This document shows positions 34,901 through 40,900 of a stretch of 64,000 bases of DNA, in pieces. Location of the stretch: the NCBI RefSeq assembly GCF_056712565.1, contig NZ_CM160072.1. One strand, written 5' to 3'. Each line of letters begins with the position of its first letter. Within the stretch, counting starts at the first letter, position 1. The position numbers were made by a program.

Positions 34901-37900
34901 AATGCACAAAGATTTTGATGCTTTGAACATTCTGCGCCCGGATATGGAGCCGCGCGCGACGCACCATATCGCCGAAATTATTGAACTCACTGAACAACTG
35001 ATCGCTAAAGGTCACGCTTATGTGGCGGACAACGGCGACGTGATGTTCGACGTCCCGACCGATCCGACATATGGCGTGCTGTCGCGTCAGGATCTCGATC
35101 AGCTGCAGGCAGGCGCGCGCGTTGACGTGGTCGATGACAAACGTAACCCGATGGACTTCGTTCTGTGGAAGATGTCGAAAGAGGGCGAACCGAGCTGGCC
35201 GTCTCCGTGGGGCGCGGGCCGTCCTGGCTGGCACATTGAGTGTTCGGCAATGAACTGCAAACAGTTGGGTAACCACTTTGATATCCACGGCGGCGGTTCT
35301 GACCTGATGTTCCCGCACCACGAGAACGAAATTGCCCAGTCCACCTGTGCGCACGATGGCCAGTATGTGAATTACTGGATGCACTCCGGTATGGTGATGG
35401 TTGACCGCGAGAAGATGTCTAAATCGCTGGGTAACTTCTTCACCGTGCGTGACGTGCTGAAATACTACGATGCGGAAACTGTGCGTTACTTCCTGATGTC
35501 GGGTCACTATCGCAGCCAGCTGAACTACAGCGAAGAGAACCTGAAACAGGCGCGTGCGGCGCTGGAACGTCTCTATACTGCCTTGCGCGGCACAGACAAA
35601 ACCGTTGCGCCTGCCGGTGGCGAAGCGTTTGAAGCGCGCTTTATTGAAGCAATGGACGACGATTTCAACACCCCGGAAGCCTATTCCGTGCTGTTTGATA
35701 TGGCGCGTGAAGTGAACCGTCTGAAAGCAGAAGATATGGCAGCGGCGAATGCAATGGCGTCTCACCTGCGTAAACTTTCTGCCGTATTGGGCCTGCTGGA
35801 GCAAGAACCGGAAGCGTTCCTGCAAAGCGGTGCGCAGGCAGACGACAGCGAAGTGGCTGAGATTGAAGCGTTAATTCAACAGCGTCTGGATGCCCGTAAA
35901 GCGAAAGACTGGGCGGCGGCAGATGCGGCGCGTGACCGCCTTAACGAGATGGGGATCGTGCTGGAAGATGGCCCGCAAGGGACCACCTGGCGTCGTAAGT
36001 AATTGCGCTATTGCCGGATGCGAGTTTTCGCATCCGGTTATCGTCTGCGCCACCACAACATTCCCATCAGTAGCATCCCCGGCAACCACACCCACATCAA
36101 TTCAGAAATAATCACCTGATGCCCGTACGGCGTGGTGTAACGAGACAATGCAAACGGCGCGACTTTAATCACCTGCCAGGGAGCGAAAAAGCGTTCATCT
36201 GACCACGGCCACAGCCAGCCAACCCCTTTACCGCCAGTGGTTACCGAATCCAGCAAGCTGTGCGATAGCAACGAGACGGTTAAAAACAGCCAGCAGCGAA
36301 TCAGCCCAGCCCTGAACCATCGACGTCCAATCAGCACACATAACAGCGGGACAACAAACGCAAACACCAGCGAATGGGTAAACCCGCGATGACCAAAAAC
36401 ATTGCCGTAAGCAACGCCAAATTTAAACGACAATACATCAGCATCGGGCAGCATCGCCAGGATGATTCCGGCAAATAACAGACGCGGAGGGATGGCTTTC
36501 GAACCCAACCCTAAACCAATGCATAGGGGAACGGCGGCGTGCGTAATAACGGTTGGCATGATGGTCGCTTCGGCAAAATGTCGATGCTATCAGCATGGAT
36601 GAACGGGGCGTAGAGGGCAAAAGTCTGAAAAGAGAACCGGCCTGTTGATACAGGCCGGGAAAGGGATCAGGCAACAACCTGTACGCTGTGACCTGCAAAA
36701 CTCACTGTCTGACCGGCGACAATTTTGCAGCGTTTGCGCGTTTCAACCGCACCGTCGACTTTCACCTGGCCTTCTGCTATCGCGATTTTCGCCTGCGCGC
36801 CGCTTTCGCTCCAGCCTTCCAGTTTCAGCAAGTCGCACAGCTCAACGTGCGGATGTTTACCTAAAGAAAATGTCGCCATGTTACTCACCCTGTGGATCAT
36901 GATATTCAACGCACGCCTGTAGCGTGTTTTCAATCAGCGTGGCAACCGTCATCGGGCCAACGCCGCCCGGAACAGGCGTAATGTATGAGGCGCGTTTAGC
37001 CGCGTCTTCAAACACGACGTCGCCCACAACTTTGCCATTTTCCAGACGGTTGATGCCGACATCAATCACAATTGCGCCTTCTTTGATCCAGTCACCAGGA
37101 ATAAAGCCCGGCTTGCCGACGGCAACGATCAGTAGATCGGCATTTTCTACGTGGTGACGCAGATTTTTAGTGAAACGGTGAGTCACGGTGGTGGTGCAAC
37201 CTGCCAGCAGCAGTTCCATGCTCATTGGGCGACCGACGATATTCGATGCGCCAATCACCACGGCGTTAAGGCCGAAGGTATCAATGTTGTAACGCTCAAG
37301 CAGCGTGACGATACCGCGCGGGGTACAGGGACGCAGACGTGGCGCGCGCTGGCACAGACGACCGACGTTGTAAGGATGGAAACCGTCCACGTCTTTGTCC
37401 GGATGAATACGTTCCAGCACTTTGACGTTATCAATACCCGCCGGTAACGGCAGTTGAACCAGAATGCCATCAATGGTGTTGTCGGCATTCAGCGCATCGA
37501 TAAGCTCCAGCAGCTCCGCTTCGCTGGTGGTTTCCGGGAGGTCATAAGAGCGGGAGACGAACCCGACTTCTTCACAAGCCTTGCGTTTGCTTGCGACATA
37601 AATTTGCGATGCAGGGTTACTGCCCACCAGCACAACGGCCAGTCCTGGTGCCCGCAGTCCGGCTGCAATACGCGCCTGAACTTTTTGAGCAACTTCAGAG
37701 CGCACCTGCTGCGCAATCGTTTTACCGTCAATAATCTTTGCTGCCATCAGAGAGAGGATTCCATCTGTTACGTAGGTCGAAGGGGATGCGTCTATTTTGT
37801 CAGAAGCGTGGCGCGCTGTCAGTTTTCGTTTTCTGAAAAGTAAAACCTTCTGTACCTGGCTGATTCACACCTATCATGATAACCGTCGTTGGTTTGCCGC

Positions 37901-40900
37901 CATAGTGAGCTACATCAGATGCGGTCGTACACTTGTTCAGCAACTGGTTCAAAAGCCATTGACTCAGCAAGGGTTGACCGTATAATTCACGCGATTACAG
38001 CACACCGTGGTATCAATGCGCCCTTAGCTCAGTTGGATAGAGCAACGACCTTCTAAGTCGTGGGCCGCAGGTTCGAATCCTGCAGGGCGCGCCATTAAAA
38101 TTCAATCAGTTACGCCTTCTTTATTTCTTCTATAATTCCAGAGTGGGACATTATCACCAAAAATGTCGTCTATTTTCCTCGCGTGCTCAGTCAAATGATT
38201 AGGCGCAAGGTGAGCATATCTACGAACCATTTCTCTGGACTCCCATCCGCCCATTTCCTGAAGCACTGATAATGGGACGCCTGACGGAATCAACCTGCTT
38301 GCCCGGGTATGCCAGAGGTCATGGAAACGGAAATTTTCAACTCCTGCACGACGACAAGCTGATAGCCATGCTGTCTTGCTGTCAATGCGCATCTTCCTGA
38401 GCGCAGGCATTGATGTTCCATCTGCTCGCTTAGCCGCCCTGGTATGTACACCCACATTTGTGATGCTTGCCTGTTTGATCATGCAGCACTTTAGAGGCGG
38501 TATCGTTCAGCGCCACACCAATGGCGCGATTTGATTTGCTATCTTCTGGATTCACCCTGGCAACTTGTCGCTGCATGTCAATCTGTTGCCACTCCAGATT
38601 TATGATGTTCGACTTTCTCAGAACAGTTACCAGCGCAAACTTGACGACAGATTTCAGTGGCTTGGGGCTCTCATCAATCAGGCGTTTTTCCTGATTCTTT
38701 TGTAAGTCTCTTGTGCCATTCCACCTCATACAGGTTTGCCTGCAAACAGTACTGATATTGCACCGCCAGATATTCCGGCTGGCTTCGTGGTTGTTTTCAA
38801 CAGTGATGAGGCATCGTGGCATCTCGTTGAAGACCATCGGGGTAAAACGGTTTATGACGTGGCATCAGGGGACGCGTTATTTATTTCTGAGCTCGGTCCG
38901 TTACCGGAAAATGTTACCTGGTTATCCCCGGCAGGGGAGTTTCAGAAGTGGAACGGCACATCATGGATAAAGGATACGGAGGAAGAAACCTCGTTGCTGG
39001 AAGCCTGTAAGATGTATCGGGTGTTGCTGAACCGAGTTGATACATCAACTGCCCCTGATATTGAGTGGCCTGTGAACCCTGTCAGAGAGTAATCATTGGG
39101 ATTATGCCGCAGCACGTCGTGCGCAAGAACGTGCTGCGGCTGGATGCTATTTTTTCCCTGAAGCGGAAAACATTACTACAGTACCTTTAACCTTGGTTTT
39201 AACATTCTCGAAATGCTCTGAGAGTATATGTGTTAAGCCTTCTTCGGAATCTTTTGTGTTTGAAAAGATGCCTTTTTGATTGTAAATGCGCATCAGTTTT
39301 TGACCGAAGCTATTGTGCACAACGCCGTCACCAAGAATTGTGGCTCCGTATAGAGTTCCATCGTCAGTTAAGGCCTGCGCCGCATTGCGTATTACACAGC
39401 TTTTTGTAGATATATTTCCAGGCAGGCAGTGAAGAAGGTAAAACATGGAAATGGAATCAAATTGACCATGTAACGCCGCGGGATAAGGATCAAAAACATC
39501 ATGGCTAATTTTATGTTTAATTTTTGATTCCCCAGCCCTTGTCGATGCCGCGTTCAGGCTAGCTTCGTTCAAATCCATTAAAGATATCAGACTACTCTCA
39601 GGTACGTGAGTAAGGTAAAACCCAGTTCCAACACCAATATCCAGATGGTTGTTACCTAAATGTTCCAGAAAGTGTGGAAGAAGGTGTTCCTTTGTAGGAC
39701 ATCCCCATGCAAGCCGATTTGATACACCCAAAACCCACCAGTCATAAAGCTTTAGGGTAAGTGGTGTGTAAATTTTAGCCCCATCATCTGTGTTTTTTTT
39801 CATTAGTTTCACTATGTTATAGTTTTATTTGTGAATTAAATCAATTATAGCGATGAATTACAAGGGGTTAAATGATGCCACGGCATAACGAATTTGAATA
39901 TATTGAGTCTTGTGTTGCGGTAAGAGGTTACACGCCAGGACGCAGGTTAAATGCTTACAAGATTAGGGGATATTGTTTGCTTTTAACGGTAAACAAATTC
40001 CCCGGGGCTATACAATACCACCGGGGAGAAAATCTATTTAACGTTGTTAAAAGGTGTACTTAAGACCAGCAGTAGTGATGAAGTTATAGTTTTCTATGCC
40101 TGCACCATTTTTGCTGTAGTCAGAAGTGTTATCATTGTGATCATAAAGTGAAGTATTACCTTTTTTATTCGTAACCCGATTCCATGCGCCTTCAACATAA
40201 ACTTTTGCGTTAGGTGTTACGTAATAACCTGCATTGACTGCAACAGAATAGTAATTTTGGTCTTTGACTTTACTGCGATAAGTGATTCTTTTTCCTGGGT
40301 CATAGTGCTCATCGTTATCAGATGCTTCCACCCAGCCGCTGTATTTAAATGTGCCACCTAGCTCAAAATCTTCATAACGATAACTTCCAGTCAAGCCAAT
40401 GTAGGGAATTTTAAAACGTTGTTTGTAGCCGATTGCTCTTTCTCCATTCGGGAAGGAGCCGATATCATCTCTGAATCCCTCCTCAGAACTGTAGATATAG
40501 GAACCACCTCTGGCTGTAAAGCTATAACGGCTTTCCTGATATCCGGCCATGAGTCCCAGGCGGTAATTGGGTTCGTTGAGGAGCCAGCCTTTGATATTCA
40601 GATCAAATTCGTTGGCATAATTGAGTTGTGTATCAGGGTGTCTACTTTCATCCGTCCAGGTTCCGGGGTTACTGGAATCCATCCAGTCCTGATCGACCAT
40701 ATTGCCACCTCGGCTGCCGAGTGTTGTCCAGCCAGCAGCCCCGATAGATATCTGGGGCATCAAATCCCAATTAATTGCACCTTTAATAATTGCAGCGTTA
40801 TTGAATTTCCAGTCAAGTTGACTGACTTTTCGGCCTCCTTCTTCGGCTAGATAAACACGCTCTTTTGTTTTTCCGCTCAGAGTTCCAAGACTAATGTCCG

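Follow-up and report, generated by a model that had tools for sequence, protein, structure and literature searches.

The 270-bp folD–argU spacer of a phylogroup B2 Escherichia coli is very probably a deletion scar of the sfm–fimZ locus

Has the short interval between folD and argU in this Escherichia coli genome always been empty, or did it once carry the fimbrial genes found at the same position in K-12? The annotated K-12 gene order is folD, sfmA, sfmC, sfmD, sfmH, sfmF, fimZ, argU and DLP12, in agreement with the preliminary description of this DNA, which had placed sfmACDHF and fimZ between folD and argU. In the window (the whole stretch of 64,000 nucleotides analysed here, from contig NZ_CM160072.1 of assembly GCF_056712565.1), the two genes are exactly 270 bp apart (37748–38017), and ARAGORN, the ORF list and tblastn bear out both this distance and the absence of sfm and fimZ, as first described. 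The characterisation of the interval as only a 270-bp spacer was correct in length but overlooked a fimZ remnant inside it. The features of the locus are listed in Table 1.

Table 1. Features of the folD–argU locus, in window positions
Feature	Position	Strand	Basis
folD CDS, 288 aa	36881-37747	minus	ORF list; annotated folD in NZ_CP033092.2
folD 5' leader and predicted promoter module	37748-37831	minus	left deletion flank; promoter scan
fimZ relic	37832-37895	minus	translation, shuffles, tblastn, K-12 composite alignment
Rest of fimZ-argU intergenic region, upstream of argU promoter	37896-37958		alignment to K-12
argU promoter, -35 TTGACT, 16-bp spacer, -10 TATAAT	37959-37986	plus	predicted; 11/12 consensus match
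Predicted argU 5' leader, removed by RNase P	37993-38017	plus	position inferred from -10 element
argU, tRNA-Arg(UCU)	38018-38094	plus	ARAGORN; Rfam tRNA, 72.1 bits
DLP12-like prophage remnant at argU 3' end	38063-41469		direct repeat; matching-record annotation

Both flanks of the spacer are conserved. FolD is 99.3% identical to its K-12 counterpart at the amino acid level (97.8% in nucleotides), and argU, the single tRNA-Arg(tct) and only tRNA gene that ARAGORN detected in the window, matches K-12 argU at 77 of 77 positions. The predicted folD promoter comprises a -35 element CTGACA (37817–37822) and a -10 element CAAAAT (37794–37799) with an upstream TG, all within a segment identical to K-12 557742–557825 at 80 of 84 positions, and this promoter block is kept in 11 other aligned Enterobacterales spacers. 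The consensus-like argU promoter mentioned in the preliminary description is present as stated; it is the same in K-12 and is kept in every one of the 12 Enterobacterales spacers aligned, a set reaching from Yersinia to E. coli; a literature search on it returned nothing usable. Upstream of this promoter, the remainder of the fimZ–argU intergenic region agrees with K-12 564593–564649 in 42 of 57 columns with an 8-bp indel, an 82.6% identity class is seen among sfm-positive genomes, and the last 18 nt of the argU leader differ from K-12 at six positions. An Rfam scan of the spacer returned nothing but the tRNA. An ORF of 62–65 aa across the spacer, annotated as a hypothetical protein in CFT073, was rejected as a gene, firstly because the type strain has GCG in place of its GTG start and secondly because it spans two promoters and the antisense fimZ relic.

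Between these flanks, the BLAST breakpoints lie at window position 37831 (K-12 557825) and 37887 (K-12 564584), such that 55 bp stand in place of 6758 bp of K-12. Searches of the 64-kb window by tblastn with SfmA, C, D, H and F gave no match better than E=0.59, indicating that the usher, chaperone, major subunit and adhesin genes of the Sfm (Salmonella-like type 1) chaperone-usher operon are absent from it. FimZ, the LuxR-type regulator, has no intact ORF; about 21 codons are left, lacking the start codon and the HTH part. For the rest of the genome we turned to E. coli ATCC 11775 / DSM 30083T (NZ_CP033092.2), to which the window is 99.99% identical over 19 kb and which is assigned to phylogroup B2 as the B2 type strain (PMC4334874). 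A chimeric megablast query joining the junction to four 250-bp probes for sfmA, sfmD, sfmH and fimZ matched this chromosome record in one place, through the junction only, and at about 85% identity or more no probe matched elsewhere on it. In sensitive BLAST mode the query matched two places in the type strain; the att repeat of the window, considered as the source of the second, was ruled out (E=1e-4).

The 55 bp lacking a BLAST match to K-12 fall inside a segment of about 64 bp that we identify as a relic of fimZ. The minus-strand translation of 37818–37895 gives 26 residues that can be set beside K-12 FimZ, with fimZ codons ~53–69 joined to codons 2–6 and the start codon missing. The BLOSUM62 local score of the relic against FimZ is 59, compared with a null of 23.9 ± 3.3 and a maximum of 40 in 1000 shuffles read in six frames. 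A tblastn search with FimZ residues 42–69 matched 37913–37830 (E=0.001), the sole and weak match in the window, and the relic residues KPT, PGT and FTF agree with E. coli FimZ, not with Citrobacter FimZ. At the DNA level, a Smith-Waterman comparison of the 55 bp with the K-12 interval alone was borderline (28 versus 21 ± 2, maximum 30), and for this reason alignment at the protein level and to the composite was required. The relic and adjoining intergenic DNA are 66–87% identical to K-12 by segment, as against 95–98% for the flanks.

The whole spacer can be aligned from end to end with a K-12 composite from which three segments have been deleted, in a scheme that was fitted after the data had been seen. 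The first deletion would have removed ~6.45 kb between two TTTCAG motifs, and the second 141 bp within fimZ between two 13-bp TATCCATAATGAT repeats, which code for both IIMD motifs of the FimZ receiver domain. The third would have taken 115 bp between CGTTGGTTT and CGTTTGTTT, including the fimZ start codon and upstream region. Of the 15 window positions that follow the ATGAT repeat, 13 agree with the 5' end of fimZ and 3 with the contiguous K-12 sequence, which supports the internal 141-bp deletion. The ends of the first two deletions are uncertain by a few bases, since the relic is diverged and only weakly aligned at 37856–37877; no genome was found in which just one or two of the deletions are present. 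From the flanking repeats we infer that replication slippage or illegitimate recombination, of which repeat-flanked deletions are typical, may have been the mechanism. What survived would be the folD promoter module, ~64 bp of fimZ that no longer code for protein, and argU with its promoter and leader, the deletions having stopped just short of both promoters. Given three such deletions, folD and argU, both essential, would therefore keep their own promoters, and Sfm fimbriae and FimZ would be missing.

A 106-bp junction query was found exactly once per genome in 1122 of 5426 complete E. coli genomes, at ≥99% identity in all carriers except one; it is 100% identical in CFT073, 536, Nissle 1917, JJ1887 and ST131, and the full 1217 bp are 99.9% identical in UTI89, S88, APEC O1 and IHE3034. 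Conversely, the K-12 sfm–fimZ interval was matched in 4302 genomes and missing from 1124 of the same set. In roughly 6 genomes folD and argU are neighbours but the scar is lacking. No probe matched in 1062 genomes even in sensitive mode, and further genomes gave probe matches of merely 60–80%, attributable to paralogs such as yraJ and elfC. An apparent third allele with a 714-bp spacer in HH97 was dropped, as its core is C-rich and of low complexity and is most likely an assembly artefact. The sfm section of PMC3604780 states that sfm is missing from all B2 strains, and separate sfm losses in B2 and E. fergusonii are described in the corresponding part of Wurpel et al. 2013 (PMC3559732). Very probably, the spacer is an old deletion scar from which sfmACDHF and nearly all of fimZ were removed and which became fixed in the B2 ancestor.

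Outgroups were drawn from a FolD-based scan of species-representative genomes; the matches listed contained neither Salmonella nor E. fergusonii, and other Escherichia were represented by a single short contig of E. albertii, broken off within sfmD. Among these matches, a fimbrial cluster lies next to folD in E. albertii, two Citrobacter species and Pseudocitrobacter. At least ~20 other Enterobacterales loci, in genera including Kluyvera, Enterobacter, Leclercia, Erwinia, Pantoea, Yersinia, Photorhabdus and Arsenophonus, have tRNA-Arg(tct) 177–330 bp upstream of folD and lack fimbrial genes in the gap.

Among the alternatives, the one that fares best, although we regard it as unlikely, is that the deleted allele was imported from another Escherichia (for example one resembling E. 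fergusonii) by homologous recombination through folD and argU. The divergence from K-12 is far greater in the spacer interior than in the flanks, as would fit such an import; the sfm locus evolves fast, with Sfm proteins of E. albertii and K-12 being ~80% identical compared with 99% for FolD; and E. fergusonii is also without sfm according to the account of this locus in PMC3559732. However, no donor was found, as the junction query matches no genomes other than the 1122 E. coli that bear the scar, the relic carries the E. coli-type FimZ residues, the well-aligned parts are just modestly above the neutral divergence expectation, and the interpretation offered in that account is one of separate loss.

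Less probable still is a primary absence, in which B2 would retain the original empty site and sfm–fimZ would have been inserted only in other E. coli lineages. The many genera with a fimbria-free folD/argU interval could be read in this way, the more so as 270 bp falls within their range of spacer lengths. A spacer that had never been occupied would hold no fimbrial gene remnant, whereas this one contains the fimZ relic, and its middle could not be aligned with any spacer from the empty sites. The cluster also occupies the same locus in E. albertii, Citrobacter and Pseudocitrobacter as well as in Salmonella (as the sfm passages of PMC3604780 and PMC3559732 have it), where fimAICDHF-fimZ is described as the orthologue of K-12 sfmACDHF-fimZ (sfm section of PMC3604780). 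Under the deletion reading, the compact divergent folD/argU layout would be derived here rather than primitive, despite resembling that of most other Enterobacterales. That the gap is an assembly artefact, or that sfm moved elsewhere in the genome, is scarcely credible: artefacts do occur at folD–argU, because the HH97 sequence is corrupt and C-rich there, but the junction recurs at ≥99% identity in 1121 independent complete genomes, and relocation is opposed by the four megablast probes, which match nowhere else in the type-strain chromosome, and by the sensitive-mode search, in which 1062 genomes lack any match and others show just the 60–80% paralogs.

The sfm–fimZ interval is one of several accessory sites at which the window differs from K-12. 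The rhsD island, IS186B and the DLP12 body (K-12 565407–581658) are absent from the window, as the preliminary description had noted for rhsD, DLP12 and IS186. IS186B looks like an insertion in K-12 owing to a 12-bp overlap at the empty site, and sfm–fimZ is the only listed absence shown as a loss in this lineage, since the fimZ relic remains. The 34-nt 3' end of argU (38063–38096) is repeated at 41436–41469, as expected of a prophage attachment site, and these att repeats bound a DLP12-like remnant with an integrase fragment, a tfa fragment, a methyltransferase and ompT, which is context separate from the sfm scar. The earlier suggestion of a streamlined or distinct lineage holds in its second part, given the match to the B2 type strain and the presence of the junction in 1122 genomes including classic B2 strains. 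It fails in its first: the type-strain chromosome is larger than that of MG1655 (4,903,501 versus 4,641,652 bp), and the window carries a 448-bp segment missing in K-12.

Absence of Sfm and FimZ is a published lineage-defining B2 trait and matters little beyond bookkeeping, although B2 holds most extraintestinal pathogenic E. coli and the absence marks the window as B2. In Salmonella, fimU (the orthologous tRNA) and FimZ form part of the circuits that control fimbriae, motility and invasion. We give little credence to the idea that loss of fimZ and its control region, together with the diverged upstream and leader sequence, could alter argU or folD expression in B2, or that the scar was imported; if true, a shift in argU, the tRNA for the rare AGA/AGG codons, would affect how AGA/AGG-rich, horizontally acquired virulence genes of extraintestinal pathogenic E. 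coli are translated. The present addition is the base-level anatomy of the scar, with its fimZ fragment and repeat-flanked deletions, and it provides direct sequence support for the secondary loss that the sfm passages of the 2013 papers argue from gene distribution.

Compared with the K-12 sfmACDHF-fimZ locus (b0530–b0535), the window has the same folD and argU flanks, the same folD and argU promoter sequences and an identical argU; K-12 has 6758 bp where this spacer has 55 bp without a BLAST match, which is also the outcome of the alignment to the K-12 interval proposed in the preliminary description, just as the proposed sfm search beyond the window gave no megablast probe match elsewhere on the type-strain chromosome. 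The sfm-negative B2 locus of CFT073, 536, UTI89 and Nissle 1917 has the same gene order, junction and sfm absence, with the same DLP12-like remnant downstream in CFT073, and there is no substantive difference from the published B2 locus. The loss of sfm here is real, but it is an already published (2013) hallmark of B2; the passages of PMC3559732 and PMC3604780 on sfm report gene absence and do not give the base-level anatomy of the scar. The compact folD/tRNA-Arg(UCU) loci of other Enterobacterales share the orientation, a similar spacer (177–330 bp) and the same two promoter modules; in alignment their spacers contain no fim remnants, in contrast to the B2 spacer with its fimZ fragment, which is a secondary return to the compact folD/argU layout.

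In MG1655 (K-12) the annotated order is folD (b0529), the chaperone-usher fimbrial genes sfmA, sfmC, sfmD, sfmH and sfmF (b0530-b0534), fimZ (b0535), argU (b0536) and the DLP12 prophage, the sfm and fimZ position given in the preliminary description. In the window, folD and argU, the sole tRNA gene detected by ARAGORN in the 64 kb, are separated by exactly 270 bp (37748-38017) as described there, and the predicted argU promoter in this spacer is indeed consensus-like. Alignment to K-12 bears out the absence of sfm and fimZ from the interval: BLAST homology ends on the left 84 bp upstream of folD, at 37831 (K-12 557825), and restarts on the right at 37887 (K-12 564584), with 55 bp lacking a BLAST match standing in place of 6758 bp of K-12.

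Judged by its sequence, this unmatched stretch is a relic of fimZ. In a sensitive local alignment, 37837-37860 pairs with K-12 564281-564304, inside fimZ, a match that is borderline if taken alone. The 26-residue translation of the minus strand at 37818-37895, compared with K-12 FimZ (N-terminus MKPTSVIIMD; residues 48-69 RPVDLIIMDIDLPGTDGFTFLK), gave a BLOSUM62 local score of 59, against 23.9 +/- 3.3 (maximum 40) for 1000 shuffles in six frames. A tblastn search of the whole 64-kb window with FimZ found the same spot independently (E=0.001), and no other sfm or fimZ match occurred in the window at E<0.3. The relic residues KPT, PGT and FTF are of the E. coli FimZ type, the Citrobacter forms being KPA, PGA/PGS and FTL.

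A composite of K-12 557742-557825, 564276-564322, 564464-564477 and 564593-564722 aligns to the spacer end to end. Past the ATGAT repeat, 13/15 window positions agree with the fimZ 5' end and 3/15 with contiguous K-12, and an internal 141-bp deletion is therefore needed. Three deletions, each flanked by short direct repeats, most likely converted a K-12-like locus into the B2 spacer; such repeats at the deletion ends would fit slippage or illegitimate recombination. The deletions end just outside the predicted folD and argU promoters, as would be expected under selection against larger deletions.

Coordinates of the folD-argU spacer, the K-12 repeats and other accessory sites
Feature	Window	Strand	K-12	Detail
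folD	36881-37747	minus		288-codon ORF
folD-proximal module	37748-37831			80/84 identical to K-12
fimZ relic	37832-37895	antisense		66-87% identical by sub-segment
Middle segment	37896-37944			74% identical
argU promoter block	37945-37999			52/55 identical, core identical
Predicted argU promoter	37959-37986			sigma-70-like TTGACT-16-TATAAT, consensus match 11/12
Predicted argU leader	38000-38017			12/18 identical, 6 differences (GCACACCGTGGTATCAAT vs CCGCATTGCGGTATCAAC)
argU, tRNA-Arg(tct)	38018-38094	plus		77/77 identical
Repeat TTTCAG			557823 and 564274
Repeat TATCCATAATGAT			564312 and 564450	13 bp
Repeat pair CGTTGGTTT / CGTTTGTTT			564469 and 564584
ybbP-selU site	9813-9854		522841-530124	42 bp replace the 7.3-kb rhsD-ybbC-ylbH-ybbD-ylbI-ylbG island
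purE-lpxH segment	32780-33227			448 bp; 30 bp in K-12
ORF in this segment	32784-33113	minus		109 aa, hypothetical protein WP_001188438.1
DLP12-like remnant	38063-41469			~3.4 kb; 34-nt att repeats (argU 3' end; 41436-41469)
SAM methyltransferase	39147-39812			221 aa, intact; K-12 counterpart ybcY a pseudogene
IS186B site, hokE/sokE-entD	62443-62454			empty

Alignment with 11 further Enterobacterales spacers shows conservation of precisely the folD-proximal and argU promoter modules, and not of the middle. The spacer interior is also diverged from K-12 above expectation, in contrast to folD (97.8% identity). Any one of three histories could account for this divergence: prolonged neutral drift accompanied by small indels, an ancestral allele that was already divergent, or a scar imported from another lineage. 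The sfm fimbrial locus changes much more rapidly than the genes flanking it, as evidenced by E. albertii NBRC 107761 (locus L004, 1-2378), in which SfmA, SfmC and SfmD are ~80% identical to K-12 and the adjoining FolD and YbcJ 99%.

Across the folD-argU segment, identity is 100% to E. coli ATCC 11775 (DSM 30083), the species type strain and a member of phylogroup B2 (PMC4334874), from which the window differs over 19 kb by two gap openings only. Of 5426 complete E. coli genomes, 1122 contain a single copy of a 106-bp junction probe (37810-37915), at an identity of at least 99% in 1121 of these carriers, including CFT073, 536, Nissle 1917, JJ1887 and O25b:H4-ST131; the full segment occurs in UTI89, S88, APEC O1, IHE3034 and NU14. 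Within the same set the K-12 sfm-fimZ interval is matched in 4302 genomes and absent from 1124. Sensitive searches with 250-bp sfmA, sfmD, sfmH and fimZ probes gave no match in 1062 genomes, and in 93 records the matches were solely to paralogs of 60-80% identity, yraJ and elfC among them. Megablast of a chimeric junction-and-probes query hit one site alone on the chromosome of the type strain (NZ_CP033092.2); thus, within a limit of ~85% identity, sfm and fimZ have not relocated elsewhere in that genome.

Two database entries at this locus were set aside. E. coli HH97 (NZ_CP116409.1, 3953-4442) carries ~425 bp of C-rich low-complexity sequence between folD and argU, then 53 bp that match K-12 fimZ 564279-564331 exactly, then a G-rich run, a pattern more suggestive of an assembly or consensus artefact across sfm than of a true allele. 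The 65-aa hypothetical protein WP_000025786.1 (37788-37985, plus; 4479-4676 in locus L086), annotated over the scar in genomes that include CFT073 and Nissle, is probably spurious: the type strain has GCG in place of its GTG start, and the ORF overlaps both promoters and the antisense relic.

The other absences noted in the preliminary description, of rhsD, the DLP12 body and IS186, are likewise real. The DLP12 body (K-12 565407-581658), appY and envY are missing, and the DLP12-like remnant retains a frameshifted integrase C-terminal half, a tail-fibre-assembly fragment and ompT. Inside that fragment Rfam IS009 has a sub-threshold match (38934-39049; 64.6 bits, gathering score 117). At the IS186B site the two alignments to K-12 share 12 bp, as fits a K-12 target-site duplication and therefore gain in K-12, not loss here. 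A 127-bp stretch of the K-12 cusC-cusF intergenic region (596982-597108) is absent at 51549-51551. A distinct lineage fits these differences, but "streamlined" does not, since the genome is larger than that of K-12 and the window holds an extra 448 bp.

Among the matches listed, fimA/sfmA-like, chaperone, usher and adhesin genes adjoin folD in E. albertii, Citrobacter sp. FP75, C. werkmanii and Pseudocitrobacter faecalis, together with fimZ where the contig extends far enough. Others among the matches listed (loci L008-L034) have tRNA-Arg(tct) 177-330 bp upstream of folD, divergent and with nothing between. This empty layout is found in Kluyvera, several Enterobacter, Leclercia, Superficieibacter, Erwinia, Pantoea, Yersinia, Photorhabdus, Rosenbergiella and Arsenophonus, and the compact arrangement is therefore old. 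The divergent pair and its promoter blocks are kept across Enterobacterales out to Yersinia, Photorhabdus and Arsenophonus; in several of these loci an integrase directly follows the tRNA gene.

The fimbrial cluster thus entered between the folD and argU promoters in the Escherichia-Salmonella-Citrobacter group and was then lost again in B2, an order that agrees with PMC3604780. There, sfm is described as orthologous to Salmonella fim and as sharing its locus, and is reported from 65% of E. coli genomes but from none of the B2 strains. As a lineage-defining gene loss, the absence of sfm and fimZ is ordinary and has been published before; the fimZ relic and the anatomy of the repeat-flanked deletions add a little to it.
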